A stretch of 64,000 bases of DNA from a virus: the IMG/VR virus record IMGVR_UViG_3300033233_000004, positions 96,001-160,000 of that record, one strand, 5' to 3'. Positions 21,672 to 41,352 of this stretch are shown here, piece after piece. Both the position numbers and the translations under genes were made by a program. Numbering within the stretch: the first letter of the stretch is position 1; each line of letters opens with the position of its first letter. The notes below the pieces were generated by a model. That model was not told where the DNA came from. It saw nothing but the letters and a program-made list of their open reading frames with translations, and ran no database searches.

Positions 21672-22462
21672 ATATCAGTATAATAAGTTCCAGCCATAAG
21701 TTGTATCAGTAATTTATCTATAGCTTCTCTATCTGGCTGTGTAGGTAGAGTAGATGCTAACCAAGCTGATGTTAATTCTTTTTGTAAACCTTCTGCCATA
21801 TCCTGAATAGCAGATAGTGAATATTTCCCACGCTTGATCTCTGTAAGATAATCTGCATCTATATTGGTACGATCACAAATTATTTCACCAGTCCTTAAGA
21901 ACTCAGTCCCTTGTCTCAATAACAAAATGAGACTACTGGCATTCTTTGTATCATAGCCGAAGTTATCCACCATCTCTTTGCGCTTGGCACCCATATCACG
22001 TGTATGTCCACCATTCTTCATACGATGTAATTGACCAAGAGCATATTTTCCAAATGATTCATAAGCTAATTTGCTACTAAAGAGATGTCGATTAGATCGA
22101 AGTAATTGATATTGCCATTTACGAGTAATAATTTTGTTATCTGGTATCCAAAGTATTTCCATCAAATTTGGATTACATTTAAGCATTAGTCGAACTACTT
22201 TATCCATACTATAAACAATGACATCCCAATCACCATCTTCCTCTGATGATTGATGTTCAAATTGTTCCCATTTATCAGGCGGCGCATTATTCAAACCTAT
22301 GATATGTGTCAAAGGCGGTGTAACAAAACCAATAAGGTCATTATCGGAAAGACCTTGGATATAGGTACCATGAAGCATACTTCCTCTATACGCCAAGAAA
22401 ACCGTGTTAGGAAGTAAATCAAACCGTGTTTCTCGACCAAAGAGTTCAGGTATTTGTATCAT
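21644..22462 (-). CDS. Pol-beta-family nucleotidyltransferase (RlaP/YcgL-like)
   Basis: RGSMLHGT...SDNDLIG, KCNPNLMEILW, GYDTKNAS, EIKRG; start at MIQIPEL. Confidence 0.8.
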   Translation of the reverse strand: MIQIPELFGRETRFDLLPNTVFLAYRGSMLHGTYIQGLSDNDLIGFVTPPLTHIIGLNNAPPDKWEQFEHQSSEEDGDWDVIVYSMDKVVRLMLKCNPNLMEILWIPDNKIITRKWQYQLLRSNRHLFSSKLAYESFGKYALGQLHRMKNGGHTRDMGAKRKEMVDNFGYDTKNASSLILLLRQGTEFLRTGEIICDRTNIDADYLTEIKRGKYSLSAIQDMAEGLQKELTSAWLASTLPTQPDREAIDKLLIQLMAGTYYTDMCVNSITNQ

Positions 22463-23780
22463 ACTTAACCTTTTTTCTTTCCCAATAGCGTTTGATTGCC
22501 AATAGTTCACATTTCTTGGTAAATTGTGCACCCGTTTCACCTTCAGAGGCATTCACAAGTGGTAAAATCTCTGTTAGTGGGTCAAACTCGGTGAGAATAC
22601 GATTTGCAATCATTGTTCTACCAGTCGCATCTGGTGAAATAAATTCAACCAATTTATCAATTCTACCCGGTCTTGTACTTTCACCTTGTTTATTCAATAT
22701 ACCTAAAGCCGAATCAATTCTCGAAATATCATTTGCTGTTATAAATGTTAAAACTCCATTCGATTGTTCAACACCAGAAATACAGTTGAGTAAACTATCA
22801 AGGGTCATAGCATTTTGGTTCATTTTATGTCCAACATTGAAATTACCATCCTTGTCAAACAGACGGTCGATATCTTCAAATAAAGCAACACACGGAGCAT
22901 GTTCAAGCATGTATTGCCAATTTTTTACTAAATCCTGATTATTCATTGAATTTAAATCAAAAGAAAAAATGGGTATATCCAATAATTGTGCAATGGCTCT
23001 AATGAAACTTGATTTACCAGTGCCAGCAGACCCATATGCGCAAACTCCAAATCGCCAATCAAGTCCGTGGTCTAAATACCACTGTTCAGATTCTTTCCAT
23101 TGTTGTAATAATACTTTCATCTCTTCTAATGAGTTATTCAAAGCCAAATATTCAAATGGCTTTTTTGAAGTTGGTGCACCAAGGTCAGAAAGCGTATATT
23201 TTAACGGACGAATACCAGTTTCGAGTTCTGCGAATGACTTTATATTACGTTCGTCGCCGGATGATGGAGCGGTAGTTTTATTACCTTGGTCATTTCTTAA
23301 TTGGAGAATTGAACCAAACAACTTTTCAATTCTAAATCTTGTTTTCCCGTTAGCATTTTGTTTACGATGATTATATTCATCTATAGCATTAATCAATAAC
23401 TCTTCTGTATTAAACAAGCCGCGTACAAATGATATAGTAAGCATATTATTTGGGTCTCCATTATTATTAAATCCTTGAGAAACGAATAATGGTTTCCAAC
23501 CTTTGAAAAATGTTAGTGCTTTACCTGAGCTTTCAAAAGGCACAGATTCATAACGATTACTTGGTTTAACAAATATATCTATGGCAATGTATCGTTTTTT
23601 TCCAATACGACTCGTTTTGAAATTACGCCATAGATATCCCATTGTTGCTTCTGCTATTGTTCCATGTATCTCAAATGAAACAACAACATATGAAGTTAGC
23701 CGTTGAAGAAAACCACGTATTTGATTCCACATTGCGATAATTGCAGCAATAGGGCCGAAGGTCATTAGATCAGCCATCAT
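22446..23780 (-). CDS. BCS1-like AAA+ ATPase
   Basis: WYLDHGLDWRFG, GSAGTGKS, LFEDID, LLNCISG, RPGRID. Confidence 0.85.
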   Translation of the reverse strand: MMADLMTFGPIAAIIAMWNQIRGFLQRLTSYVVVSFEIHGTIAEATMGYLWRNFKTSRIGKKRYIAIDIFVKPSNRYESVPFESSGKALTFFKGWKPLFVSQGFNNNGDPNNMLTISFVRGLFNTEELLINAIDEYNHRKQNANGKTRFRIEKLFGSILQLRNDQGNKTTAPSSGDERNIKSFAELETGIRPLKYTLSDLGAPTSKKPFEYLALNNSLEEMKVLLQQWKESEQWYLDHGLDWRFGVCAYGSAGTGKSSFIRAIAQLLDIPIFSFDLNSMNNQDLVKNWQYMLEHAPCVALFEDIDRLFDKDGNFNVGHKMNQNAMTLDSLLNCISGVEQSNGVLTFITANDISRIDSALGILNKQGESTRPGRIDKLVEFISPDATGRTMIANRILTEFDPLTEILPLVNASEGETGAQFTKKCELLAIKRYWERKKVKYDTNT

Positions 23781-25407: not shown

Positions 25408-26103
25408 TTACTCCTCAGTTGTTGGTTTTAACCATAGTTGTGGATAAAGCTTAAAAAGGGTATATGTTAACCGCCCAAACTTATTCAAAGCAAGGAGAGT
25501 CTTATATGAATTTGCTTTGAAGCATTTGGTCAACTCATCACGTACTCGATCTACGGAGACAGTATTCAACTTGTTAATAAGCTTATCATTATAGAGACAT
25601 ACTTCCGTCTCATTCACAATCTGAAAGTCTTTCGTAATAGAGAAGCGAATAGCTCTCAACATACGGAGCGGGTCTTCATTGAAGCGGTCAAATGAATTAC
25701 CAACGCATCGAATAAGACCGACAGTGATAGCTGTACGTCCATTATGAGGATCAATATACTCTCCTGTCTCGACATCTTGAGCAATGGCGTTCATGGTGAA
25801 ATCTCGTCTGGCTAAGTCATCGTAGATGGTACCCACTGTAACATTATCTGGTCGTCTGCCATCTGAATAGAAACCATCCCTGCGACATAATACAAAATCA
25901 GCATCACCCAACTTTGGCATCTTAGCCCGAATGGTCAGATACTGTTCCCGTTCCTGCCATATGGTACCACCATTGGCGAGAATGTAGTCACGCATAGCTT
26001 CATAGCTTGGAGCTTCAACAGCGTAGTCCAAATCTTTACCAATAGATAAACCAAGCAACTGGTCTCGAAGGGTTCCACCAACAAGATAAATTTTGATACT
26101 CAT
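25408..26103 (-). CDS. tRNA nucleotidyltransferase (class II CCA-adding/poly(A) polymerase family)
   Basis: YLVGGTLRD, KDLDY, DDLARRDFTMNA, FNEDPLRMLRAIRF. Confidence 0.9.
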   Translation of the reverse strand: MSIKIYLVGGTLRDQLLGLSIGKDLDYAVEAPSYEAMRDYILANGGTIWQEREQYLTIRAKMPKLGDADFVLCRRDGFYSDGRRPDNVTVGTIYDDLARRDFTMNAIAQDVETGEYIDPHNGRTAITVGLIRCVGNSFDRFNEDPLRMLRAIRFSITKDFQIVNETEVCLYNDKLINKLNTVSVDRVRDELTKCFKANSYKTLLALNKFGRLTYTLFKLYPQLWLKPTTEE

Positions 26104-27333: not shown

Positions 27334-27335
27334 AG

Positions 27336-27421
27336 TACCCTCAGTAGGATTCGAACCTACACGCTACTATTACTTCGCACTGGCTTCTAAGGCCAGCATG
27401 TCTGCATTTCATCATGAGGGC
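27336..27421 (-). tRNA. tRNA-Leu(TAG)
   Basis: Cloverleaf, loop CTTAGAA, long variable arm. Confidence 0.9.
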
Positions 27422-27611
27422 AGTAATAAGTACTATGGTGACATTGCATTTGCAGCGAAGGACTTACTCTTAAAGTTACTGGCGGAAAAAGCACAAGAAG
27501 CAGGCGAAAGTATACCTTCTTGTGTAAGACCAGCAAGTAAACGAGCGGACAATGAACGAACTATACTTGAAGAGCTATCATTTGCTACGCCAGTACACAT
27601 TACAACTATTG

Positions 27612-27684
27612 TCAAGGTGTTGGGAATCGAACCCAAATTATTCCAATTTCCGATACTGGTACCATACCATTAGGCGACACCCTG
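27612..27684 (-). tRNA. tRNA-Pro(CGG)
   Basis: Cloverleaf, loop ATCGGAA. Confidence 0.75.
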
Positions 27685-27756
27685 AAATTTTTGAGGAGTC
27701 ACGGTCGCACACGCTTCGTGCATCCAAGTTAACCGTTTGTGAGTTGACTCCTCATT

Positions 27757-28251
27757 TTATAACTCTCTTCGTACTATTTTATCCGCCGCATAAGATGCAG
27801 CATATGCTTCTGGCTTAGGCGTACATGGAAAACCACAACCTCGAACCCATCCTATTGCCCAATCATACATTTCATTGCTTTTGAATTCTTTCTCTTTGTT
27901 GAAGTCTAAATGCATGTCATACTCCACAATATTTGGTAATTCAAATGTACCAGTATCTCTGAAATAAGTAGCCATCTCAATGATAATTTCAACTTCACGA
28001 CTCAATCGTTTGAAATCATCTCGATGATATTCTCTTGTCATAGTCCCAACAATGTGTGCACCTTTACCATAACGGTAAAGTACAATAGCGATACCAAATT
28101 CTGCCCATCCCGCATCTTTTGGAAGAGAATCACATCCTACCCAAAGAGAAAATGGTTCCTGTCGATACTCAGCAACATATGCTTTAATATATTGTGCCAA
28201 GTCAGTAATATGAACACGAGAGAGACCAGTTGTTCTAAACTTGAAATCCAT
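27757..28251 (-). CDS. RNase H-like YkuK (DUF458) family protein
   Basis: VGCDS, GKGAH, RLSREV, HLDFN, KPEAYAASYAAD. Confidence 0.8.
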   Translation of the reverse strand: MDFKFRTTGLSRVHITDLAQYIKAYVAEYRQEPFSLWVGCDSLPKDAGWAEFGIAIVLYRYGKGAHIVGTMTREYHRDDFKRLSREVEIIIEMATYFRDTGTFELPNIVEYDMHLDFNKEKEFKSNEMYDWAIGWVRGCGFPCTPKPEAYAASYAADKIVRREL

Positions 28252-28291
28252 GTCTATGGTTTCCTTTCTTTGTCAGCGTAACTTATTATTG

Positions 28292-28362
28292 CTGCCCCAC
28301 AGAGATTCGAACTCCGATAAACACCTTCAAAGGGTGCCGTCCTTCCGTTGAACGATGAGGCA
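28292..28362 (-). tRNA. tRNA-Gln(TTG)
   Basis: Cloverleaf, loop CTTTGAA. Confidence 0.9.
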
Positions 28363-28368
28363 ATTATT

Positions 28369-28875
28369 TTACATAAAAATAAATGCTATAACGAATGACA
28401 CAATCAAACCAATTGCTGCTTGAATCAACAAGATTCTTCCAAAAATAGGTGTCACTCTTGTTATCTTTGGTGAAATCTTCTTAAATATGAAATTGTATGC
28501 CTGTAAAAATAATCCAACCAATGTCCACGATGCCCATACAACTTCGTTTCCCAATACTTCCAACATAAATGCAAATTTATGATTGTACCAATTGAATATG
28601 TAGCAGAACAGATAGTAAAGCAAATCTGCCAACCATACATCCCACATGAAAAGAAACAAAATTGCAGGAACCCAACTAAACTGCCACCAAAGTACTGTTG
28701 TAAGAAGTATCTGAAAAATGGTTTGATAGATTCGATATTCATTAACTTCCCATTTAAAAAATGTAACCATAATATTATTTCGCCCAAGTTTGTTATACCC
28801 TATATAATCAAATAAGGCAAACACAAACAATGCTGCAAAAGCTATTAACCATATAATAATCCATGAAAACATCAT
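28369..28875 (-). CDS. Multi-pass membrane protein
   Basis: Hydrophobic segments; start MMFSW after GGAAGG (the ORF-track start overlaps a tRNA). Confidence 0.6.
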   Translation of the reverse strand: MMFSWIIIWLIAFAALFVFALFDYIGYNKLGRNNIMVTFFKWEVNEYRIYQTIFQILLTTVLWWQFSWVPAILFLFMWDVWLADLLYYLFCYIFNWYNHKFAFMLEVLGNEVVWASWTLVGLFLQAYNFIFKKISPKITRVTPIFGRILLIQAAIGLIVSFVIAFIFM

Positions 28876-28889
28876 AGTACCTTCCTTTT

Positions 28890-28965
28890 TGGTGCATCCA
28901 GTAGGAGTCGAACCTACAACCTTTCGATTAAGAATCGAAAGCTCTACCAATTGAGCTATGGATAC
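28890..28965 (-). tRNA. tRNA-Lys(CTT)
   Basis: Cloverleaf with encoded CCA, loop TTCTTAA. Confidence 0.92.
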
Positions 28966-28992
28966 GTATTTTTAAATTCGAACTGTATTTTG

Positions 28993-29064
28993 TGCCGCCA
29001 CTCAGAATCGAACTGAGGCCTCGCTGCTTAAAAGGCAGGTGAGCTACCATTACCCCATGGGGGC
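28993..29064 (-). tRNA. tRNA-Lys(TTT)
   Basis: Cloverleaf, loop CTTTTAA. Confidence 0.8.
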
Positions 29065-29106
29065 GATTTTATTTCATCCCATAAGGCGTTTCATCAATTG
29101 GTGAAA

Positions 29107-29589
29107 CTACTCATTAGGTGAAACTTCAAACGGAGACTCCTGTTTAAGAGCCTCAGTCTGTTTAGAACGTAATTCATCAAGTTCCTGTTTGGATTCTATA
29201 ACTTCTTGTTTCATTGCTTCTACAAGAGTATCCACAAGTGTAGGAGTTAATGCAACAGACTGACCAGATACTTCCGTATTTCGTTCTTGTTCATCCTTAA
29301 CAAACTTATAACACGAAGACAGATTTTTCTTGATTAACTTGGCATTATTCAAATCAGCACGAATATAACTTTCTATCTTTCCATTGAATAAATATTGTGC
29401 TTTAGCACCGTCCATTCCATTCCATATATATCGAACAGAACCATCATTGAAAAATAATGCTAATTCAAATGCAACAGTACCTTCTGGAAGATTCAGAGCT
29501 TTAATATCTTCATTGATATCCGGTCTATTAACCAAACCCATTTCTGCATTAATTTCTTCTGCTGATTTTGTTACTGTATTTTCTTCCAT
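29107..29589 (-). CDS. Hypothetical protein
   Basis: GAGG SD, 160 aa. Confidence 0.65.
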   Translation of the reverse strand: MEENTVTKSAEEINAEMGLVNRPDINEDIKALNLPEGTVAFELALFFNDGSVRYIWNGMDGAKAQYLFNGKIESYIRADLNNAKLIKKNLSSCYKFVKDEQERNTEVSGQSVALTPTLVDTLVEAMKQEVIESKQELDELRSKQTEALKQESPFEVSPNE

Positions 29590-29685
29590 GATATCCTCTT
29601 TGTGTCTGGATATGTCTTGATACTTATGAATTGATTAAATACTGTCTATTTTCTGGACATTTATCTGGACATAATGTCCAAATTG

Positions 29686-29768
29686 CAGATAGTACGAGAC
29701 TTGAACTCGTAATCCCAATTAAGGACACCAATATTCCAAATTGGCTCTTTTCCATTCAGTTACTCTTT
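29686..29768 (-). pseudogene. Degenerate tRNA-Ser(GGA)
   Basis: Intact anticodon arm (TTGGAAT), variable arm and T arm; 5' acceptor strand damaged and overlapped by the HNH-like ORF end. Confidence 0.55.
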
Positions 29769-30221
29769 ATTTACATTAGTTGTTGCTCCCCATCCACGAG
29801 CTTGTCTATATGCAGTTGTGTCTTGTTCTGGATGAAGGCTACGAAAATTTCTTTTGTTTATTATTTTACAAAGTTTACATATTCTGCTGTTTCTGTTTGG
29901 TGGTATATAAGTATTGTCTTTATCATATGCATGTCCTTTTGGACAATGTGTTTTATTGGTTCGAGGTTCTCCAACATTACACGCTAAATGACTGAAAGCT
30001 ATATTACTTAAATCCCAAAATAATTTGGGGTCATTATTTAACCATGCAGTCTTATGCTCAATCGACAAGTCTTCTACAAATTCTATACAGCGATTACATC
30101 TATAACAAATATTCTCGTTATGAAGAATAAGCAAATGAAAGATAATCATTTTACGTAAACGTCCATTTGCCGTTCCAAATGGCATACCTAACTGTGCAGT
30201 TTTAATTGCATTAGAGTTCAT
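29760..30221 (-). CDS. HNH-like endonuclease with Zn-binding C-terminus
   Basis: CYRC...SIEHK...NIAFSHLACN; KTHCPKGHAY...RICKLC. Confidence 0.7.
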   Translation of the reverse strand: MNSNAIKTAQLGMPFGTANGRLRKMIIFHLLILHNENICYRCNRCIEFVEDLSIEHKTAWLNNDPKLFWDLSNIAFSHLACNVGEPRTNKTHCPKGHAYDKDNTYIPPNRNSRICKLCKIINKRNFRSLHPEQDTTAYRQARGWGATTNVNKE

Positions 30222-30253
30222 TTTAAGTCCTTTGACATTATGAACAAATAGAG

Positions 30254-30342
30254 CGGAGAGGTAGGGACTCGAACCCTATTGGGAGCTTTCGCCCCCCACG
30301 GTTTAGCAGACCGTTGCGACGCACCATCTTCGCCGCCTCTCC
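30254..30342 (-). tRNA. tRNA-Ser(GCT)
   Basis: Cloverleaf, loop CTGCTAA, long variable arm. Confidence 0.92.
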
Positions 30343-30395
30343 ATGCAAGTTTTCAAATAATGTCAATACTTAGGAGACCTTGCAACCCATACGAA

Positions 30396-30704
30396 CTAAT
30401 TCAACATTTCCATCCGTTTCACAGATAATAACATTCTTACAGTAAATACATTGGCTTCATCTTCCATATCATGACATTCACAAACAGGAAAGAAGACCAA
30501 TCTTGAAGTACCATCACCACGAGACCCAAATCCAAGAGCAGCCTCATCACCATCTGGAAGAATTACACCCCAATTATTAGTCGATGCTGTACAAATCCAG
30601 CAAGATGCATAACTGTTCTTTAATGAAGCAATCTTATTTTTGATAGCTTTGCTGAATTCTTCTATAGTTGGTATATTCATACAGTTTTCGCCAATCCTGT
30701 TCAT
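30396..30704 (-). CDS. Hypothetical Cys-containing protein
   Basis: CWIC...CECH. Confidence 0.55.
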   Translation of the reverse strand: MNRIGENCMNIPTIEEFSKAIKNKIASLKNSYASCWICTASTNNWGVILPDGDEAALGFGSRGDGTSRLVFFPVCECHDMEDEANVFTVRMLLSVKRMEMLN

Positions 30705-30744
30705 TATTTATCTCTGTTCACAAAAAATGAACATATCAAAAAAT

Positions 30745-30990
30745 GAACACAATGAGCTTACGCCAACTTCTGCTTTAGGTCATGATTTCTCTTGCGGCCT
30801 GTACCCGCCTTCATCGGTAAAGAATGCGTCTACCTCTGGCTGTTTCAGTTGCACACATACTGGTGGTACTATCGAACTGACCGTAGCTTTCAGGGCTACG
30901 ACCAGTTCTCCCGCTCATTCTTAGTGTGGTCGGACGTTTCTCTCATCCCTATTCCTACAGGGATAGAGCCATGACTTCTCTGTTGTGTTT
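30745..30990 (-). ncRNA. rnpB: Miniature RNase P RNA (about 246 nt)
   Basis: P1 AACACAA/UUGUGUU; P2 GUCAUGG/UCAUGAC; P3 AUCCCU...AGGGAU; P4 ACG(U)CCGAC/GUUGGCGU with bulged U; GUGCAACUGAAA S-domain motif. Confidence 0.8.
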
Positions 30991-31196
30991 CATTTCATAC
31001 TTCTCGTTCAAACAATACAAACACATTTGTTGCGTTGCATAACCGTTATCCAATTCATATCTCTTTGTTTCAACATATGCATGATGTTTGAATATATGAC
31101 ACAGTATTGCTCTACCGAGAGGTTTCAACGAACCTACATATATCACTATCCTCGGAAAAAGATACGGAATTCGTATGACAATTGGATTTTTCATTG

Positions 31197-31269
31197 TGTA
31201 GGTGAAGAGATTCGAACTCTCACGCCAGCGTTGGCAACGCCGTATGCTAACCATTAACATCACACCTAC
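31197..31269 (-). tRNA. tRNA-Gly(GCC)
   Basis: Cloverleaf, loop TTGCCAA. Confidence 0.88.
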
Positions 31270-31354
31270 AAAAACTTAGCTGTCTCATATTGCTCTATCG
31301 TGCGACATTCAACCCATACGAATCTTAATAGGCACTCCTATCCGAATGGGTTTG

Positions 31355-31429
31355 TAGCCTCAGAAGGAGTTGAACCCTCAAATCTCTGCGTTCGAAGCGC
31401 AGCATGTTATCCAGTTACACCATGAGGCC
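31355..31429 (-). tRNA. tRNA-Arg(TCG)
   Basis: Cloverleaf, loop CTTCGAA. Confidence 0.88.
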
Positions 31430-31639
31430 AAAATGAATCTTTTACAGTTCGACCAACATCAAGGTCAAAGTCGAGTTCAAAATAGAAGCAACTTACGTTA
31501 CCTTGTATTTAACAAGTTCCACCGACAGAAAGCGTTTGGTAGTAAGTAAGGGAGACTATTATCGACTGGCGGTGCCATAACCGTTAGTCCAGTTGATGCT
31601 TTCGTCTTCTTCTTTATGGCAAGTACTCCTATTTTTTTG

Positions 31640-31710
31640 AGCGGGTAGTGGTAGTTGAAACCACGTCCGATGGTTGGAAGCCACCTATAATACCGTTATA
31701 CGATACCCGC
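31640..31710 (-). tRNA. tRNA-Gly(TCC)
   Basis: Cloverleaf, loop CTTCCAA. Confidence 0.85.
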
Positions 31711-31711
31711 A

Positions 31712-31966
31712 TTATTCTTTATCCCAAAAATTCACATTAGAAAAATCGTGTGGTAAACCTAATGAATCTTCTAATTTATTCAATTGATAATTTTGATAAT
31801 CTAATTGCTGTTGTTGAAGCTTGTATAGAGACTCATATTGCATACGTTGAGCTTTTGCTGTTACATATGTTCCATGTTCTTTAACAAGAGAGTTTAATTC
31901 AATACAGAACCAAAGAAGTGCAGTAACTAATAAAAGAGTCATTACTACTTTTATAACATTCATCAT
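31712..31966 (-). CDS. Hypothetical membrane-anchored protein
   Basis: N-terminal TM segment plus coiled coil. Confidence 0.55.
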   Translation of the reverse strand: MMNVIKVVMTLLLVTALLWFCIELNSLVKEHGTYVTAKAQRMQYESLYKLQQQQLDYQNYQLNKLEDSLGLPHDFSNVNFWDKE

Positions 31967-32025
31967 GCAACCTTATTTGATTGTTTTCTCTGAAAATCAA
32001 CCATTAAAGGTTGATTATAACTTTG

Positions 32026-32099
32026 TACCCATGGCGAGACTCGAACTCGCATCGACGTAGGGTTTAAGCCTACCGAATATGCCATTCTTCTACATGGGC
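32026..32099 (-). tRNA. tRNA-Leu(TAA), short variable loop
   Basis: 74-nt cloverleaf, loop CTTAAAC. Confidence 0.8.
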
Positions 32100-32101
32100 A
32101 T

Positions 32102-32130
32102 AATGTACACAAACGAAAATCAAAAGTCAA
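32102..32130 (-). promoter_or_regulatory. Sigma70-type early promoter
   Basis: TTGACT-17-TACATT. Confidence 0.6.
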
Positions 32131-32182
32131 GAGAAATCTAAATAAAAATAGAGTTGCTGGCAGGATTCGATACCTGCCATTG

Positions 32183-32737
32183 TTATACGCCATGCGTTGC
32201 GGCAACTTCCAGCTGCACATCGCTGGCAATCTCGTTTCCCCATGTATCCCACCCGTCAACTCTTCGACGGGCGAACAATTCAACGCGAGGATTCAATCCT
32301 TTCGTCGCTCGTTCAATTAACTGGCGAAATTCTTCTGGCTTCTCACTGTGTCGCAATGCTTTCAACTGGAGAAAATTCGGTTCTTGACATCTAAAAGCCT
32401 TCACACGCCCACGTACACCAACAAGGATATGCTCTGTTTGTCCTCTGAACCAATAGCCCATTCCGAGACTCATTATCTTGCGCCACGTCAGCATTGTCTT
32501 GAAGGAATATCCCCACGCCCTGAGAACTTGAAACCCTTCTTCCATCATCGGAACGGTTACCCAAAGAAAAAGCACACTGTTGTTATCAGCAATTTCGCGC
32601 ACGTTCAATCGACAAATTTCATCAACAGTCATTGTCTTGTATTGGTATTCTGCCCCGCTTTGCATAGACTCACCCGTTTTCTTGTTTCGATATGTCCACG
32701 GGGGGTCTGCATATATTATCTGATATCGTTTTTCCAT
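32183..32737 (-). CDS. MT-A70 family N6-adenine methyltransferase
   Basis: IYADPPW, LFLWVT, GMGYWFRGQTEH, HSEKP, ELFAR, GWDTWGNE. Confidence 0.9.
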   Translation of the reverse strand: MEKRYQIIYADPPWTYRNKKTGESMQSGAEYQYKTMTVDEICRLNVREIADNNSVLFLWVTVPMMEEGFQVLRAWGYSFKTMLTWRKIMSLGMGYWFRGQTEHILVGVRGRVKAFRCQEPNFLQLKALRHSEKPEEFRQLIERATKGLNPRVELFARRRVDGWDTWGNEIASDVQLEVAATHGV

Positions 32738-32861
32738 TGCTCAAATCGTTGCCGCAAAACACGCACGGCGTATAACAAGCGGGTTAACGCAAGCCCTACC
32801 CAAATTGGTTTTGAAAAGCATCGTCTGGCAAGCCCTTCGCCTGCTCCAACCCGACTGGACG

Positions 32862-33125
32862 TTAGCCGCCATTTCGCTTACGCACATTTTCTTTACGCCA
32901 AAGTGCAAGCCCTGATCGTCCAGCAAGTTTGTCAACAACCGTAAATGCACCACGTATAAATTGACGACGTTCTTCTTCTGTTGCAAACCCGTGATGTTTT
33001 GGGAAATCGGCTGGTATAGCCCAGCAGTTAAGTTTAGTCCACCACCGTGCCAACCGAGCGCGCAAACGGCGGCTCACAATCGTGCTTACGTCGCTCACTC
33101 TTTTAGATTTCTTCATAGAATTCAC
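32862..33125 (-). CDS. Hypothetical cassette-borne protein
   Basis: Stop codon lies in the GGCTAAC boundary. Confidence 0.5.
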   Translation of the reverse strand: MNSMKKSKRVSDVSTIVSRRLRARLARWWTKLNCWAIPADFPKHHGFATEEERRQFIRGAFTVVDKLAGRSGLALWRKENVRKRNGG

Positions 33126-33186
33126 TCAACACCTTTCTCATTCATAAAAAGCGTGGAGTTCGGTGTGTGCATTGTTGGCGCACACG

Positions 33187-33477
33187 TTAACTGCAAGGTG
33201 GCGGTGGAAGTGGCATCCAATGCGTTATATTGAACGCAAACTCCGTTCCTTCCCATTCGCAATTATGGCTTATTCCTTCTCTTGTTTTCATTGTCATAAA
33301 TGATGATAAGTAACCAACCCTAATATCTTTCCTTTCCTCTCCCGTATGCGTTTTCCAATCATCAAACAATAGAACTTCTTTTCCTAATTCAGGTAGTTTG
33401 TCAACCACCGCTACCCAGTTAACACCACCTTGCTGCAATGCGGGTTTCTTCTTACTTTTTGAGTTTGTAGTTTTCAT
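33187..33477 (-). CDS. DUF551-like protein
   Basis: WVAVVDKLPE...ITHWMPLPPPP. Confidence 0.75.
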   Translation of the reverse strand: MKTTNSKSKKKPALQQGGVNWVAVVDKLPELGKEVLLFDDWKTHTGEERKDIRVGYLSSFMTMKTREGISHNCEWEGTEFAFNITHWMPLPPPPCS

Positions 33478-33691
33478 ATTATTTTGTTTTTATAGTTAAG
33501 TTTTCCACTTCACAGTCAATCCTGCCAAGTTGTATCATCAGGCCGTCTGTCTTTGATTTCGTGCCAAGCAATTAGTCGAATGAAATCAATCTGTGTAAAA
33601 GCGTCCATTGCTCACTCCTTTGATGTTTGAATTGTGTTCGCAACGTCGGACTTACGCCGTCACGCTGGTTGCCATGCGGTGCATTTTATAG

Positions 33692-33925
33692 TCACCGCTC
33701 GACAAGCGTATCGTGCAAATCTCGGTCTGGTTTCGGTACAACCTTTGCATTGCCGGGGACATATCCCCACCGAGTCCCACAGCAAAGGCATTCGTACTGT
33801 ATTACACCGATCAGTGGCGTTCCCGGAGGATCACCAGTTCCAGCTATTCTTGAATAATCTGGAATGTATGAATCATCAACTCTCATCACGTATTTACAAA
33901 CACATTCTCTATGGCTCATTTTCAT
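33692..33925 (-). CDS. Hypothetical Cys-rich protein
   Basis: ECVC...YECLCCG. Confidence 0.45.
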   Translation of the reverse strand: MKMSHRECVCKYVMRVDDSYIPDYSRIAGTGDPPGTPLIGVIQYECLCCGTRWGYVPGNAKVVPKPDRDLHDTLVER

Positions 33926-34090
33926 TTTACCCCGCTCAAATTATTGTACGCACCGACAACTAACAATGCAAAAGTACGGCACTGGCCGAAAGGAACTTAT
34001 CTCCTCGATTTACCACGCCCCGATAAGTGGATGACGTAGACAAGCATAAGGCACAATCTGCTTTAGCGTCTATCTTCCGCCACAGCACCT

Positions 34091-34166
34091 TGGTGCTCCC
34101 ACTACGAATCGAACGCAGGTCTCTTGAGTGTAGGTCAAGCGTGATACACCACTCTACTATAGGAGC
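34091..34166 (-). tRNA. tRNA-Val(TAC), C33
   Basis: Cloverleaf with CCA, loop CCTACAC. Confidence 0.85.
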
Positions 34167-34175
34167 AAAATTATG

Positions 34176-34247
34176 TACTCTCAAAAGGAATTGAACCTTC
34201 ATCTTAGATTTAGGAAATCCATATCCTATCCATTGGACGATGAGAGC
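34176..34247 (-). tRNA. tRNA-Arg(CCT)
   Basis: Cloverleaf, loop TTCCTAA. Confidence 0.88.
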
Positions 34248-34335
34248 AAATGCAATGGTCAGACGACTCCCGATAGCCTTATACAGATTCATCTTGCGAC
34301 TGGTAGAAGCTACCCTTTAACGTTCGTATTAATAG

Positions 34336-34409
34336 TACCCACGGTCAGACTCGAACTGACACTGTACGGCTTCTCGAACCGTTCCCTCTACCAATTGGGC
34401 TACGAAGGC
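34336..34409 (-). tRNA. tRNA-Leu(GAG), short variable loop, C33
   Basis: Cloverleaf, loop TCGAGAA. Confidence 0.72.
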
Positions 34410-34464
34410 GGTACGAGTGATTTTAACGAAGATGAGTAAAATCAAATCCGCCAAACGGTCTTAG

Positions 34465-34538
34465 TACTACGTAGGAGCCTCGAACTCCTAATCTCCTGAT
34501 TGAAAGTCAGGTGAGTTATCCATTTCCTCTAACGTAGC
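34465..34538 (-). tRNA. tRNA-Glu(TTC)
   Basis: Cloverleaf, loop CTTTCAA. Confidence 0.88.
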
Positions 34539-34564
34539 ATTTAGTCGAATCTGAAAGTTCAACT

Positions 34565-34741
34565 CTATTCGTCGCCCTTTTTCGTACAAGTGCAGGGTGA
34601 ATATCTTTTGCACTTGCAATTATTACATTGATGCTCTGGCTGTTTATTTGTTGAAGCCCGAAGTTGTCGAAGACCTTTATACTTAGTTGGGTCAAATGCT
34701 GTAACTACACCGCGCATATCTACTGTTGTTCCATTATTCAT
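34565..34741 (-). CDS. Small Cys-rich protein (58 aa, below the ORF-track cutoff)
   Basis: MNNGTTVDMRG...HQCNNCKCKRYSPCTC. Confidence 0.45.
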   Translation of the reverse strand: MNNGTTVDMRGVVTAFDPTKYKGLRQLRASTNKQPEHQCNNCKCKRYSPCTCTKKGDE

Positions 34742-34891
34742 CGAGTTCTTTCCGTTTCATGTAACCGCATAATTCTCAGACTCTCGGATCGCCAATTGTC
34801 CCTCTGCTATCCGTCTGCTAATACTATTCCGTCCCTTGCCATCAAACGAAGTACTTCTTGCTGCCGAGCAGTGAGTATCACATAAGGATGG

Positions 34892-35143
34892 TTAATAGTC
34901 TTCACAGTCATAACATCTGCACTCTGCACAATGCTTAACACCATGGTTGTGTTCGTCTGCCAGTTCAGCATCGTTACACCACGTACCACATTTCTCACAT
35001 TCTACGACACTGTTCTCCGAAAGATAGTGCTCCAACTCTTCGAGGTCAGAAAACGCCAATCCATACTTTTGGAGTATGTCAGCTATGCTTTGAGCAGTTC
35101 CTAACAAGTCGTCAGCAATCTTCGCTTTGAGTTCGAGTTCCAT
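34892..35143 (-). CDS. Hypothetical Zn-ribbon protein
   Basis: CEKCGTWC...CAEC; start MELELK. Confidence 0.55.
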   Translation of the reverse strand: MELELKAKIADDLLGTAQSIADILQKYGLAFSDLEELEHYLSENSVVECEKCGTWCNDAELADEHNHGVKHCAECRCYDCEDY

Positions 35144-35147
35144 CAAC

Positions 35148-35657
35148 TTAGACCTTGATACATAGATAACTGAACCCGCTACCTTTTCTGTACATCTTGG
35201 TGATTTGACAACCACCAAAGACTCCATGCACCCATTTCATATATACATGTAAACGTTTGTTTGCTTGCCATGTGCCTGTTTTCCCGATACAAGGTCTTCC
35301 ACTACGATTTCCTTCATATACAGAAATGTAGATGCAACCACCAACCTTCACATGTCGTCTTGCCAACCAAAGCACTTCTGTAATACCAGTAGATGTCTCG
35401 ATGACATTTAGAACATTACACAAAGTAACAGTGTCATAGTCATATCGTTCGAGCATTCTGGCATTGTGGTCGGATGTTCTATTGTAGGGGTCATAGATGA
35501 AGTTCCCTACACTTCGTTCCGCCAAATATTTAGTTGCTTCCTCGAACTTTCCACCACCAATATCCAGATTGCTGGTATGTGGATACCAGTTTACTAACTT
35601 AAACACTGCTGGTATCTGCTTGATACAGGTTCGTGCTGAACGATGTATTGTATCCAT
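35148..35657 (-). CDS. Small class I SAM-dependent methyltransferase
   Basis: NLDIGGG, YDPYN, YDTVTLCNVLNVI. Confidence 0.8.
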   Translation of the reverse strand: MDTIHRSARTCIKQIPAVFKLVNWYPHTSNLDIGGGKFEEATKYLAERSVGNFIYDPYNRTSDHNARMLERYDYDTVTLCNVLNVIETSTGITEVLWLARRHVKVGGCIYISVYEGNRSGRPCIGKTGTWQANKRLHVYMKWVHGVFGGCQITKMYRKGSGFSYLCIKV

Positions 35658-35671
35658 GGTATCTCCCTTTG

Positions 35672-35760
35672 TGCCCTAAGTGGGACTCGAACCCACAATC
35701 GTTTCTAATGTTTGCCGTAGGGTTTGAGCCTACCGACTTTGCCAGTTTGTCTACAAGGGC
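35672..35760 (-). tRNA. tRNA-Leu(CAA)
   Basis: Cloverleaf, loop CTCAAAC, long variable region. Confidence 0.82.
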
Positions 35761-35936
35761 GTTACTGTATGCATCCGATACTTGTATGTCTCTTCGTGTT
35801 ATCGCATATCGCATATTGCGATATGCAAATGCTCGTTTGGACGGTTTCTTTGTCTTGTGGCTTCACAAGCTCTTTGCGATGCTTAAGAGCCAGATGAACC
35901 AATTGTCGTATCAAACTTCTGCTTGGCTTTTCCATG

Positions 35937-36010
35937 TACCACATAAGGGCCTCGAACCCTTAATCTTCTGCTTGAGAGGCAGATGTGTTAGCCTATTCCA
36001 CTAATGTGGC
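35937..36010 (-). tRNA. tRNA-Glu(CTC)
   Basis: Cloverleaf, loop CTCTCAA. Confidence 0.88.
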
Positions 36011-36244
36011 ATTTCCGCTCTTTGCTCCCCACTTCATCATCTTCCAGACTCTGTGGTAGATGAAGTACAGCATAATGCGTATACCGATATATGTGAGACT
36101 TGTTTGAATAGAGTGTATTAAGATGTAAATAAGAATCAATCCGAATAATTCCCACACAACGCCTTTTACAAACGTCCGAATATAGCTACGCTTCTTATCT
36201 GTCATCTTATAGTATCCACTTTTCTCCACATTCTTGACATTCAT
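35993..36244 (-). CDS. Small membrane protein (DUF2061-like)
   Basis: KRSYIRTFVKGVVWE...LYFIYHRVWKMMKWG. Confidence 0.55.
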   Translation of the reverse strand: MNVKNVEKSGYYKMTDKKRSYIRTFVKGVVWELFGLILIYILIHSIQTSLTYIGIRIMLYFIYHRVWKMMKWGAKSGNATLVE

Positions 36245-36391
36245 ATAATGACGACTTTGGACGAATGGGTTTGAACTTGACTTCTGGTAAACCTATCAGC
36301 ATTCTTCCATTACTTAGATGAAAGAATCTGCACCACATTCGTCGCCAGAAACTTGGGTCTCTTTTTTCCATATGGCCTTTCTACTTGTTTG

Positions 36392-36466
36392 TACTCGGTG
36401 TAGGATTCGAACCCACGTTGACGCAGAATATAAGTCTGCCGCCTTAACCTGTCGTGCCAACCGAGC
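36392..36466 (-). tRNA. tRNA-Ile(TAT)
   Basis: Cloverleaf, loop CTTATAT. Confidence 0.75.
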
Positions 36467-36577
36467 ATAAAAACCGACAAATAGAATCGAAAACCAAACT
36501 CGTTTAATATACAGTTCGACTATAAATATTGGTCATATCCCTCTATATATATACTATATAGAAAGGATAACTACATC

Positions 36578-37189
36578 ATGACAAATTCCAAACAACGACA
36601 AGTCGAAGGACAACACATTACTGCGGCAATGTCTCATCAACGTTATCTAATACGAATAGAAACATACAAGCAAACTCCAAACTTATGTGCACAGTGTTAT
36701 GCACCGCTTGCTTATAGCCACCGAAAAAACAAATTCTGTTCTCATTCTTGTGCAGCTATTGTTACTAACAGGCTTTTTCCAAAAAGACAACAAACAAATG
36801 GAACAAGAGAATATCGAAGACAAGGAAAATGGCGTAAACAATTTAGAAAAAAAAGGCTCCGTGACCTGACATTACTGGAATATTTAGAACGAACACACGT
36901 TAAACCTCTTCCAGCGATGATAAAGAAATCTGCTCTTCGTTCTTTTGCTCGACATTGGAATCAAGACATTCTCAAAAAACCGTGTGCAAATTGTGGATAT
37001 GATAAACACGTTCAATTAGCACATATAAAAGCAATTCGAGATTTTCCATTAACAGCAACTTTGGGAGAAATTAACTCTCGAACAAACGTCATACAACTTT
37101 GCCCAAACTGTCATTGGGAATTCGATAATACCTTCCTTAAAATCTCTGTAGGGACAGAAGGATTTGAACCTTCAATTTCTCGATTATGA
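36578..37189 (+). CDS. HNH endonuclease
   Basis: CAQC...FCSHSC; CANCGY...AHIK...NVIQLCPNCHWEFD. Confidence 0.85.
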   Translation: MTNSKQRQVEGQHITAAMSHQRYLIRIETYKQTPNLCAQCYAPLAYSHRKNKFCSHSCAAIVTNRLFPKRQQTNGTREYRRQGKWRKQFRKKRLRDLTLLEYLERTHVKPLPAMIKKSALRSFARHWNQDILKKPCANCGYDKHVQLAHIKAIRDFPLTATLGEINSRTNVIQLCPNCHWEFDNTFLKISVGTEGFEPSISRL

Positions 37190-37221
37190 GCCGAGCGGAT
37201 TAGCCATTCTCCTATATCCCT
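37149..37221 (-). tRNA. tRNA with CAT anticodon (Ile2 or elongator Met)
   Basis: Cloverleaf, loop CTCATAA. Confidence 0.82.
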
Positions 37222-37298
37222 AAAAAGTACGTACCCCCAAAGAGGACTCGAACTTGGATGTTACTCGCTACTGCCGACCTCAACCCCACTATAATTTT

Positions 37299-37763
37299 TT
37301 ACGGAACAGGTCGTAATGATGTTATATTTCTATTACCATCTACTCCAATTCTGAATGTTGCACCAACTTCGACAAACTGAGCAAGCAACTCACTGTATGG
37401 ACTAATTACAGTAATGCCAAATTCTTTATTACCTTGCTCGTTACCAATCTGGTCATTCCATTGATTAACTAATGAAAGTACTGGCTCCTGAAATTGATTT
37501 ACCGGAACTCCTCGTAAAACATTGGTGTTGGATTGAACCACGCCAACAAAACCTTCAGTACTATACAAAAATGCTTGTCCATTATCCCAAGCAGAAAGTG
37601 TTACAACACCTACTTTCTCCAAAGACTGTACAGTAGTGGAGATTGGATTAATGTTTGAATCTGATGCTTGTGTACAGCCAGAACAATACAAACAAACTGC
37701 TGTAAACAAAAGCAACAAACTGGCTGAAAATATCTTAACTGCTTTAGCCGTTTGACTCTTCAT
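37299..37763 (-). CDS. Putative lipoprotein
   Basis: Signal peptide ending CSGC; AAGGAG SD. Confidence 0.6.
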   Translation of the reverse strand: MKSQTAKAVKIFSASLLLLFTAVCLYCSGCTQASDSNINPISTTVQSLEKVGVVTLSAWDNGQAFLYSTEGFVGVVQSNTNVLRGVPVNQFQEPVLSLVNQWNDQIGNEQGNKEFGITVISPYSELLAQFVEVGATFRIGVDGNRNITSLRPVP

Positions 37764-37821
37764 ATAAGTATCTCCTTAAATTATGTGATTTGTTATTTTA
37801 GTGAATTAGTGTTGTGAATTG

Positions 37822-37898
37822 TACCCTTGATGGGAATTGAACCCACATTTTCATCCGTTATGCACGTTCTGCTTAGAAGGCAGAGCCATTACAAGGGC
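37822..37898 (-). tRNA. Atypical tRNA-Arg(TCT) lacking a D arm
   Basis: Acceptor, anticodon (CTTCTAA) and T arms intact; 7-nt D-replacement loop; 21-nt variable region. Confidence 0.65.
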
Positions 37899-37986
37899 AA
37901 ATCTAATTGTGACTGGCTTACAGCATATCATAAGTTCACTTACAAACGAAGCTACTATCATGCAAGGGTTTGTCTGTAAGCCATCG

Positions 37987-38057
37987 TCCGCCCAAGAGGA
38001 ATCGAACCTCTATTACCAGTATATCGGACTGGCTTCCTACCGTTGAAAGACAGGCGG
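37987..38057 (-). tRNA. tRNA-Ile(GAT), C33
   Basis: Cloverleaf, loop CCGATAT. Confidence 0.78.
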
Positions 38058-38133
38058 AAAAGTATATCTTATTTACTTGGTTCATCAAGGTTAATACGAG
38101 TAAACTCATCAATGTCGATGTTGTGCGCCATGC

Positions 38134-38343
38134 TTAGTTTATCCCCTGCCGACATCCACAATTCTGACAGTAATCGGTATATTCGGGCCGATCAATGTGT
38201 ACCACCATTTCAGCGTGGGGATCGCCGCACAGAATCACTTTTCGATGAACTCGATCATACACAATCGAATCTGCGGGTCGATCACAGTCATCGTCGGGAT
38301 ATTCGCACTTGTCTTTTCCAGTCAAATGTCGTACTTCGCTCAT
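38134..38343 (-). CDS. Small Cys-rich hypothetical protein
   Basis: AAGGAG SD; CEY..C...CQNCGC. Confidence 0.6.
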   Translation of the reverse strand: MSEVRHLTGKDKCEYPDDDCDRPADSIVYDRVHRKVILCGDPHAEMVVHIDRPEYTDYCQNCGCRQGIN

Positions 38344-38495
38344 AAAGTTCTCCTTTCATTTAATCGGCATCGCACTACCCACTAAAAATACAAAGAATAA
38401 AGGGACAATGTGGAACCCAAAGTCAACTTAGCCGCCTTACCATGCTGTGTACGGGAGACAGGAGTAAACCGTACATGAGAACATTGTCCATTGAG

Positions 38496-38569
38496 TGGAC
38501 ACAGGTGAGATTCGAACTCACAACCTCCGCATTGCAGGTGCGGCGCATTCCCATTAATGCTACTGGCCC
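38496..38569 (-). tRNA. tRNA-Ala(TGC), C33
   Basis: Cloverleaf, loop CCTGCAA. Confidence 0.82.
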
Positions 38570-38688
38570 CAAAAAGTCATTACACTGGTCAACCACTGCG
38601 CTACCCATCTGGATTGCTCTATGCGGTTATGGATTGTCTCCGCCGAATAGTCCAGCATAAGCCTTGTCCGTTGTATGCAATGACTTTG

Positions 38689-38761
38689 TACCATCATACA
38701 GATTCGAACTGTATCTTTGAAGTCCACAACTTCACGTGCTATCCATTAACACTATGATGGC
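38689..38761 (-). tRNA. tRNA-His(GTG)
   Basis: Cloverleaf, loop TTGTGGA. Confidence 0.88.
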
Positions 38762-39058
38762 ATAATACTTCCAGACCCAACGTTTGAGGGTTATAAAGAC
38801 CCAAGTCTGGAAGTTATTTTTATACTATGTTCCCATCCACCGCTTATGCAGCAGATACACTGTCCATTCAGCCTCACAATTATGACGACCGTTAAAGTGG
38901 GAACTTCTTTTTTTAACCTCTGGCGAAGTTGTCTCCGCTTTCCACTCGACTGGCGAACGATTTGAGAAGTAGGTTTCGAGCCTTGTTTCATTTGTCGTTC
39001 CTAAATCAGAGGGTGTTACCTGAATCATTCTCTTAAATTGTCGTCCAATGATTCATTG

Positions 39059-39135
39059 CAGGACGTAGAGGAATCGAACCTCTTCGCTATTTGCACAGGT
39101 TTTGGAGACCTGCCGGAGACCATCTCCCACGTCCC
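39059..39135 (-). tRNA. tRNA-Trp(CCA)
   Basis: Cloverleaf, loop CTCCAAA, slightly long variable loop. Confidence 0.8.
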
Positions 39136-39356
39136 ATTTGTGGTACCTTCCATAGAACCTCTTAAGATGCTGAGAAAGATACCATAATTTTATTAAGTCC
39201 CTTATCTGCGGTTTTTGCACAGTGAACTGTGCAAAAATACTCACAAAGGGACTATAAATACGGGATAACCTACAGGTGCGACCTGCTTCTGTATCGTCGG
39301 ATTATCAGCGACTATCCAATATCAAGATTCCCTTGAATCCTGTTCTTGGAGTGGTG

Positions 39357-39432
39357 TAGCAAGAGCAGGATTCAAACCTGCGATTTCTTGATTATGAGTC
39401 AAGCGAGGACGGTCAGACTCCTCTATCTTGCA
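39357..39432 (-). tRNA. tRNA-Met(CAT), initiator-like
   Basis: Loop CTCATAA; unpaired 1:72. Confidence 0.8.
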
Positions 39433-39433
39433 G

Positions 39434-39507
39434 TCAAGGTGACAGGATTCGAACCTGCGACTTTCTGGCCCCAAACCAGACGCTCTACCAGACTGAGCCA
39501 CACCCTG
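39434..39507 (-). tRNA. tRNA-Pro(TGG)
   Basis: Canonical cloverleaf, loop TTTGGGG. Confidence 0.92.
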
Positions 39508-39597
39508 AAGTTATCTAAAAAACAAACCATTTTGACTACGCTCTGAATCTCGTTTACAACCATTGCAGAATTTGACCATAAAAATCAACTACCTTAG

Positions 39598-40010
39598 TGG
39601 ACGTGTCGGCAATCGAAGCCGAGTCCAAAGTACTACTAATAAAAAATCATTCACAGGTTTAGTCAGGCTTAGAACTCTTTGGTGCCACTACAAACCCGAC
39701 GAACTCAGGCAACCGCAACAAAGCATTTGTTCAGTCCACGGTGCTTTGTACCTTCCGTGTTTCGCCATCTCCACCATCTGGTTTTTTGTCGTTGTGAGGT
39801 GTGTCAAACAGACCATATACCAGAACCTCACGAACTTATACCATTACTGGCACAAGTTCACTCTCGTCTGCAAAGACCAAAATACCAGCCTCGTCAACGA
39901 AAGCCGTAGAAGATTTAGCTTCTGCGTTTGTGTTTTTTAGTTACATTACGGTGTAACAACCCCGACCTGCATTCTTTACTAATTTTACCCTGTCGAATCC
40001 TTTCACGCCC
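39598..40010 (-). ncRNA. ssrA: tmRNA
   Basis: 5' GGGCGTGAAAGGATTCGAC; 3' T arm TCGGCTTCGATTGCCGA-CACGTCCA with G3.U; tag ORF 39925-39836 resuming at GCA. Confidence 0.9.
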
Positions 40011-40046
40011 ATTGTATTACAACTATCTCTTTTTTCTCTGCTCTTT

Positions 40047-40319
40047 TTACAAGTGTCGATGACCAGTGTATACAAAATGCTTTCTGTAAATTTCTCGTGT
40101 TGGTTTCCTATTACTACCATTTGTTAAGAACAACTCAGGATGCTCATCTCCTTGTTTGGTAACAAATACCGAAAAGGTATTACAAGCTAAGAATTCGTCA
40201 GCACATCTTTTCTGGAATACACATGTATCACAAGGCGACGGAACCAGAAGTTCACCCATGGATGCTTCAATTATGGATGCTTCTTCCTGCGTAAGATATT
40301 TTTGAATAAGATTACTCAT
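40047..40319 (-). CDS. Hypothetical Cys-containing protein
   Basis: AAGGAG SD directly behind a promoter; PCDTC...RC...LAC. Confidence 0.65.
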   Translation of the reverse strand: MSNLIQKYLTQEEASIIEASMGELLVPSPCDTCVFQKRCADEFLACNTFSVFVTKQGDEHPELFLTNGSNRKPTREIYRKHFVYTGHRHL

Positions 40320-40337
40320 GTATCTCCTTGTTTGAGT

Positions 40338-40366
40338 AATATACTCATATCATCTGTAAAAGTCAA
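40338..40366 (-). promoter_or_regulatory. Sigma70-type early promoter
   Basis: TTGACT-17-TATATT. Confidence 0.7.
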
Positions 40367-40386
40367 GTGAAGTCTAAACTTTTTTG

Positions 40387-40722: not shown

Positions 40723-40724
40723 TT

Positions 40725-41350: not shown

Positions 41351-41352
41351 AT

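Follow-up and report, generated by a model that had tools for sequence, protein, structure and literature searches.

The tRNA gene array of a myovirus was found to carry a gene for a miniature RNase P RNA, and the sequence evidence supports the view that this RNA is truly homologous to the type A RNase P RNA of bacteria. Its catalytic P4 helix differs from the bacterial consensus, and the view that this rewritten helix is one among many compensated versions, present across a conserved family in phages, is likewise supported. The DNA analysed comprises positions 96,001 to 160,000 of the IMG/VR record IMGVR_UViG_3300033233_000004; this whole stretch of 64,000 nt is referred to here as the window, and window coordinates are used throughout. 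According to IMG/VR the phage record is complete, with 171,836 bp and direct terminal repeats, and the phage was judged to be a myovirus from its tail-sheath gene. ARAGORN predicted a minus-strand array of 35 tRNA genes plus a tmRNA that spans 27.3 to 44.2 kb (27335-44228). The preliminary description of this DNA had placed the RNA among its likely substrates, and the same-strand array of 35 tRNA genes and tmRNA agrees with that placement. The features of the locus that are needed first are given below.

30743..30988, minus strand: mini RNase P RNA gene, 246 nt by the Infernal bounds, recognised by an end-to-end alignment to RF00010 and by a leave-one-out family profile
31196..31269, minus strand: tRNA-Gly(GCC), the nearest upstream tRNA, 207 nt before the mini RNase P RNA
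30253..30342, minus strand: tRNA-Ser(GCU), the nearest downstream tRNA, 400 nt past the mini RNase P RNA
25408..26103, minus strand: CCA-adding-type nucleotidyltransferase with a short PolyA_pol head domain (PF01743, E 2.7e-19), adjoining the tRNA island

The gene order Gly, RNase P RNA, Ser(GCU), Lys(UUU) is common to the window and to the relative L073. An RlaP RNA-repair protein (21644-22552) is encoded just outside the tRNA array, as are two metallophosphoesterases (16931-17743 and 20665-21411). An MT-A70 methyltransferase (32183-32737, minus strand, E 1.4e-33) and a weak HNH endonuclease match (29760-30221, minus strand, E 0.004, below the Pfam cut-off) were observed in or near the tRNA island, and a transposase (47370-48650, minus strand, phrog_506, E 6.6e-104) lies about 3 kb past the array. 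Rfam recognised a tRNA at 37822-37898 on the minus strand (37.4 bits) which is absent from the ARAGORN output and which had been noted earlier as a 'D-armless' candidate. The tmRNA (39597-40010, minus strand) encodes an unusual 29-residue tag, AEAKSSTAFVDEAGILVFADESELVPVMV, the end of which is not the usual ...LAA; the tag of the tmRNA of contig L094 (5661-6052), which carries one of the closest relatives of the RNase P RNA, likewise begins with AEA (AEAISDFTFDDAMAMVGCELVTA).

A cmsearch with bacterial and archaeal RNase P RNA models had been proposed in the preliminary description as a check of its reading. Using Infernal, positions 1-367 of the bacterial type A model RF00010 (RNaseP_bact_a) were aligned, end to end, to 30743-30988 on the minus strand with a score of 30.5 bits. 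The match had an E-value of 8e-8 in a sensitive local scan of 30600-31200, where it was the sole meaningful match, and of 5.5e-9 across the whole 171.8-kb genome, in which it occurs as a single copy. No match was obtained anywhere in the genome, at E up to 10, with the models for archaeal type T (RF02357), bacterial type B (RF00011) and archaeal (RF00373) RNase P RNA. The score of 30.5 bits misses the curated gathering threshold of 100, and nothing was reported in gathering mode. Since it lies so far under this threshold, standard Rfam annotation overlooks the mini RNase P RNA, just as had been foreseen by the suggestion that it may escape standard models; the length proposed for it earlier, about 246 nt and shorter than typical, is also the length given by Infernal. 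A protein-coding alternative was considered and rejected; the ORFs overlapping the RNA have no Pfam or PHROG match.

The secondary structure was written from the Infernal alignment with RNA position 1 at window position 30988, and each pair was checked. All 58 modelled pairs and the 8 pairs of P4 (66 in total) are canonical. The elements of the RNA are listed below.

30978..30988 (positions 1-11), minus strand: P1 5' strand, 9 canonical bp with 30747-30756; 9/9 pairs covary in the family
30989..30993, minus strand: possible 5' extension of P1, AUGA at 30990-30993 with UCAU at 30743-30746, leaving 30989 as a bulged A
30970..30975 (positions 14-19), minus strand: P2 5' strand, 6 canonical bp with 30779-30784
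30940..30968 (positions 21-49), minus strand: P3 hairpin, 12 canonical bp with one bulged G; covaries in the family
30929..30942 (positions 47-60), minus strand: CR-I and the P4 5' strand, GAGAAACGUCCGAC, with bulged U55
30924..30928 (positions 61-65), minus strand: P5 5' strand, 5 canonical bp with 30852-30856; covaries
30857..30923 (positions 66-132), minus strand: S-domain stub, with a P7-like helix, a GGAG motif, a 14-bp hairpin and a UAGUAC motif
30916..30922 (positions 67-73), minus strand: P6 5' strand AAGAAUG in J5/7, one side of a 7-bp pseudoknot
30874-30908 (positions 81-115), minus strand: hairpin of the S-domain stub, 14 bp, canonical
30841..30851 (positions 138-148), minus strand: J5/15 CAA, P15 5' strand CUG and the 5' side of L15, AAACA
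30807..30840 (positions 149-182), minus strand: P16 and P17, the P17 loop giving the P6 3' strand
30820..30826 (positions 163-169), minus strand: P6 3' strand CAUUCUU in the P17 loop, partner of AAGAAUG
30799..30806, minus strand: 3' side of L15, GGGUA (positions 183-187), and the P15 3' strand CAG
30785..30794 (positions 195-204), minus strand: J18/2, CAAGAGAAAU / AAGAGAAAU, kept
30759..30777 (positions 212-230), minus strand: J2/4 and CR-V, UAAAGCAGAA, followed by the P4 3' strand, GUUGGCGUA

The three motifs on which the preliminary description was built were located on the minus strand (GAGAAACGTCCGAC at 30929-30942, GTGCAACTGAAA at 30843-30854 and GTTGGCGTA at 30759-30767). It had also asserted that P1, P2 and P3 occur in the right order, and these helices (9, 6 and 12 bp respectively) do follow one another correctly and consist of canonical pairs only. 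P1 can probably be lengthened by 4 bp, leaving one A bulged, and hence the true 5' end of the RNA is probably some 5 nt further upstream than the Infernal boundary, which would make the RNA about 251 nt long (30743-30993). The P4 pseudoknot is formed by AACGUCCGAC with GUUGGCGU and comprises 8 bp (A52-U229, C53-G228, G54-C227, C56-G226, C57-G225, G58-U224, A59-U223 and C60-G222), with U55 bulged. In comparison to the bacterial consensus it contains three double, compensatory changes and one change from G-C to G-U; the earlier claim that P4 had been rewritten by compensatory changes with the bulged U kept was thus borne out.

The second pseudoknot of type A RNAs, P6, which joins J5/7 to the P17 loop, is also present in the window RNA. 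P15 and P16 consist of 3 bp each and P17 of 4-6 bp, and the segment running from J5/15 through P15 to the 5' side of L15 aligns to the GCAAggccAAAUA consensus. The internal loop between P15 and P16 contains the GGU motif, with GGGUA flanked by the two helices; the GGU of L15 pairs with the 3'-RCCA of the tRNA (review PMC11143913). The J2/4 motif CAGAA is conserved in the window RNA, and a U-run follows the 3' strand of the RNA. At position 50 the window RNA has an A where most relatives and bacteria have a G (GAGA vs GAGG), and at position 216 it has a G in place of A.

P18 is absent, 2 nt taking the place of 24 RF00010 model positions. A complete S-domain (P7-P14 with the T-loop binding site) was not found either, as about 140 model positions are reduced to 64 aligned nt, the stub measuring about 64-67 nt. 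The S-domain had been described earlier as stripped, and this holds to the extent that it is drastically reduced, but a conserved stub made up of the P7-like helix and one hairpin remains. The P7-like helix pairs positions 74-78 with 123-127, and only 3/5 of these pairs form in the window RNA. By its fold the RNA is of type A. It departs from RF00010 in its score and in lacking a complete S-domain and P18, and it is better filed in a distinct phage family of mini RNase P RNAs.

Near the 3' end of the RNA we observed a 13-nt direct repeat, TGTTCATTTTTTG, which occurs twice on the minus strand (30737-30749 and 30721-30733). The repeat overlaps the RNA 3' end and extends just beyond it, and its second copy can fold into a GUUCA/UGAAC hairpin; a terminator scan called no terminator at 30721-30749.

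Covariation was assessed on a 30-sequence alignment of the phage family, using slid partners and shuffles as controls. In the modelled helices 93.5% of cells were paired, compared to 37-43% with slid partners, and 406 cells with double changes were counted against 123 after shuffling. P2 was paired in 98.9% of cells and all of its 6 pairs covary, G19-C205 in the window RNA being a flipped, still-paired form of the family C-G; P15 was 100% paired across the family. All helices covary, among them P4, P6 and the P7-like helix, which lay outside the search model. For P4, 90.8% of cells were paired vs 28-42% with slid partners, there were 62 double-change cells vs 19 in shuffles, and 6 of the 8 pairs covary; 28/30 sequences keep the C-G pair that follows the bulged U, and 29/30 keep the A-U pair at the opposite end of the helix. 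The P7-like helix was paired in 83.8% of cells (at most 47% when slid), with 18 double-change cells vs 6, and 24 of 27 relatives could form a P6 helix of 6 bp or more, with 20 different versions of its sequence. Between the window RNA and its nearest relative (66.8% identity) we counted 23 compensatory changes and 1 single change, with the pairs canonical in both RNAs.

Columns conserved in at least 90% of the family number 42, of which the window RNA keeps 40, and one of the two deviations is the flipped P2 pair; about 26 of the 42 are fixed by the search pattern, so that their invariance is partly by construction. The same pattern forces the invariance of the L15 GGU across the family. When a profile built from 20 members without the window RNA was run with nhmmer, it recovered the window RNA at 91.4 bits (E = 1.2e-27, profile positions 5-206 of 207) and nothing else in the window, the next match having an E-value of 1.4. 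These observations indicate that the shared reduced architecture is maintained by compensatory change across the family.

They also bear on whether the gene might be a decaying, functionless relic of a host rnpB that was captured along with tRNA genes. Its low Rfam score (30.5 bits), its few deviations from the family consensus and the lack of such an RNA in the closest phage relatives would fit this explanation. Against it are the 66/66 canonical pairs of the window RNA, the 23 compensatory changes vs a single one against the nearest relative, the family-wide covariation, and the recurrence of the same reduced architecture in 41 other distinct sequences. The covariation argues strongly against a relic, which we consider highly improbable.

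For collecting the family, motif patterns were validated on the window first and then run over IMG/VR and metagenome contigs, where they matched 10 and 45 loci respectively. A single-sequence covariance model made from the window RNA matched the 10 viral loci without exception and all but one of the 45 metagenome loci, with scores of 20-138 bits. The family consists of these 54 loci, representing 41 distinct sequences of about 150-310 nt, with the window RNA in addition; as collected, it is biased by the search pattern. Judged by these matches the family has at least 42 distinct sequences including the window RNA, which is therefore not unique. Viral contigs carrying members reach 215, 488 and 527 kb.

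In one genome each of 185,579 prokaryote species, the family pattern was found on only 3 contigs, all of them from metagenome bins, and two of the three coincide with metagenome contigs of the family that carry tRNA arrays. On the basis of these species genomes the family is essentially absent from cellular genomes. Two pattern-positive contigs of a 'Saccharofermentanales' MAG, L112 and L113 (JBBAEW010000030.1 and JBBAEW010000057.1), agree both in length and in pattern position with L083 and L095, metagenome contigs that carry tRNA arrays and a mini RNase P RNA, and they are probably phage contigs that were binned into a bacterial MAG.

Strict patterns specific for the P4 of the window RNA gave 3 chance matches in IMG/VR and none in the metagenomes, and an exact 16-mer matched nothing; the P4 version of the window RNA is, as a result, so far unique. 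Searched by blastn against deposited phage genomes, five of six family members, including the window RNA, found no match. The one exception was L095, which matched LR756501.1 and LR756503.1. LR756501.1 is an unannotated 735-kb genome of an uncultured phage in GenBank, and a divergent family member was located in it at about 181.3-181.6 kb (L114:2940-3200, plus strand). This RNA has CR-I, a compensated P4 and CR-V, together with an extra hairpin at the position of P18; its L15 reads GGGUU instead of GGGUA, and no tRNA lies within 3 kb of it. It was missed by both the covariance model of the window RNA and the RF00010 pipeline and falls outside the pattern, which implies that the true family is wider than the search pattern.

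On a phage contig of about 488 kb (L063), two different mini RNase P RNA genes were observed about 240 nt apart (1878-2132 and 2370-2619, both on the minus strand), beside a tRNA-Met; the first of these also occurs in L068 and L070. One copy matches the window-RNA model at 27 bits. The other scores 53.2 bits with RF00010 and has a P18-like hairpin and its own version of P4, AAGUUCAGGG with CCCUGGCU.

None of 38 IMG/VR records related to the phage by tail sheath had the RNA by RF00010 or the window-RNA model, a search whose pre-filter can miss divergent members, as it missed that of LR756501.1. In the closest complete tail-sheath relative no RNA was found in the tRNA regions even with the filters off, and the tail-sheath relatives carry only 0-8 tRNAs. 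As these closest relatives lack the RNA, this phage lineage can do without it. Around the nearest relatives of the RNA, the flanking regions have no protein similarity to the window, and no protein gene was found to be syntenic with it. The conserved unit is the RNA and not its neighbourhood.

Of the 289 tRNAs at the family loci, 288 share the strand of the RNA; a tRNA starts within 10 nt of the RNA 3' end in 15 loci, and a tRNA ends within 10 nt of the RNA 5' end in 9. Where tRNAs abut it in this manner the RNA must derive from a tRNA precursor, and with an abutting downstream tRNA, the cut that matures this next tRNA would make the RNA 3' end. In contrast to many family members, the window RNA is not abutting, with gaps of 207 and 400 nt to the tRNAs on either side. 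Near the gene, neither a sigma-70-like promoter nor an intrinsic terminator was detected on the strand of the RNA.

Based on these results, we interpret the locus as a phage gene for a mini RNase P RNA that descends from bacterial type A RNAs. The RNA has a complete catalytic (C) domain, comprising P1-P5, the P4 and P6 pseudoknots, P15-P17 and the L15 GGU loop, and has lost P18 and, except for the stub, the specificity (S) domain. The RNA would be transcribed together with the phage tRNA array, excised from the precursor and bound by host RnpA, and would then remove the 5' leaders of phage pre-tRNAs; during infection this may provide extra processing capacity or may replace the host RNA subunit. 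Lacking the S-domain that reads the tRNA elbow, the RNA would have to recognise its substrates via the acceptor stem, the 3' end and the contact between protein and leader. A protein partner from the host is assumed because the phage has no RnpA of its own, no PF00825 match being found anywhere in its genome. A pathway in which the RNA is excised from the tRNA transcript, associates with host RnpA and trims the 5' leaders off phage pre-tRNAs seems to us probable. For the proposition that a phage ribozyme released from a polycistronic tRNA transcript takes over RnpA and matures phage tRNAs without reading the elbow, we consider the chances to be even.

An experimental precedent speaks for this pathway, as bacterial C-domains without an S-domain cleave pre-tRNA both with protein and without it (PMC11143913). 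In E. coli RNase P RNA, on the other side, the deletion of P18 or of the S-domain greatly lowers activity or affinity (PMC11143913). Several of our findings count against the proposed explanation, namely the lack of a nearby promoter or terminator, the weak P7-like helix, A50 and G216, the loss of P18 and most of the S-domain, the lack of rnpA, and the existence of relatives without the RNA. A further one concerns the substrates, as a CCA behind the discriminator base is encoded by only about 4 of the phage's 35 tRNA genes. In many tRNA genes of the array (27335-44228, minus strand) A-C-A was observed instead of CCA after the acceptor stem.

Some of these points would be expected of a non-catalytic mimic, one that sequesters host RnpA or competes with M1 RNA and thereby shuts down or re-programs host tRNA maturation. 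In a phage without rnpA, any function has to depend on a host factor. The phage RNA lacks P18 and most of the S-domain, both of which the E. coli RNA needs for full activity, and most of the phage tRNA genes do not encode the CCA that L15 would bind. However, conservation is strongest in active-site and substrate elements and not only in the regions of protein contact; the conserved features are A51/A52, U55 with C56-G226, J5/15, J18/2, the J2/4 CAGAA, the L15 GGU and P6. The RNA also lies among its presumed substrates and is often fused to them. We therefore regard a mimic as unlikely.

Another alternative is that the RNA is catalytic but independent of RnpA, acting alone or with a phage protein that replaces RnpA and the lost S-domain. 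P3, J18/2 and J2/4, whose regions contact RnpA in bacteria, are all retained in the phage RNA, and no protein gene accompanies it in synteny. These points make independence from RnpA, in our estimate, slightly less likely still than a mimic, even though the genome has no PF00825 match and many ORFs neighbouring the RNA are orphans, such as the downstream ORF at 30396-30704, for which no homologue was found in 5.8 billion proteins. C-domains are, moreover, partly active in vitro without protein (PMC11143913). The reading that we prefer remains that of a ribozyme that would work with host RnpA.

Compared with E. coli M1 RNA (rnpB, 377 nt) and RF00010, the phage RNA has the same order of P1, P2, P3, P4, P5, P15, P16 and P17. 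With bacterial type A RNAs it further shares the bulged U of P4, P6 between J5/7 and L17, the J5/15, J18/2 and J2/4 motifs, and, as in E. coli, the layout of L15, with AAACA in its 5' strand and GGGUA in its 3' strand. It differs from them in length (246 nt vs about 350-400 nt), in the absence of P18, in the reduction of P8-P14 to a stub of about 65 nt, in its rewritten P4 and in its viral location inside a tRNA array. A natural archaeal form without a recognisable S-domain, the Pyrobaculum type T RNase P RNA (RF02357), was reportedly described by Lai et al. in 2010. The type T RNA is likewise naturally miniaturised, to about 200 nt, with the C-domain kept; the phage RNA, in contrast, is viral, has the type A L15 GGU loop, P6 and P16/P17, and gave no match to RF02357.

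Like the phage RNA, engineered C-domain constructs without an S-domain have a catalytic domain and no binding site for the tRNA elbow, and they are reported to act on pre-tRNA whether or not protein is present and to bind it more weakly (PMC11143913). These constructs are laboratory deletions, whereas the phage family is natural, conserved and covarying, has a small S-stub and lacks P18. CPR bacteria likewise have reduced, diverged RNase P RNAs that do not reach the Rfam thresholds and are without P12-P14 and P18 (PMC8172020), but these are the sole cellular RNase P RNA of their genomes and retain more of the S-domain than the phage RNA.

RNase P RNA is considered a universal housekeeping ribozyme of cells, and ever since the work on T4, phage tRNAs have served as textbook examples of host RNase P substrates. 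In a full-text search of the literature outside subscription journals we found no paper on a phage-encoded RNase P RNA, and no such RNA appears in a comprehensive 2024 review of RNase P. A family of virus-encoded RNase P RNAs would add a catalytic RNA to the translation-related genes of large phages. Standard annotation with Rfam gathering thresholds misses all of these RNAs, including the one in the unannotated 735-kb phage genome. The family would supply dozens of natural, covarying minimal RNase P sequences, which show the parts that are dispensable in vivo, namely P18 and nearly all of the S-domain, and it gives a direct test of substrate recognition without contact to the tRNA elbow. If the phage RNA does take over host RnpA, the supply of phage tRNAs would be independent of the host RNase P RNA and tolerant of odd tRNAs.
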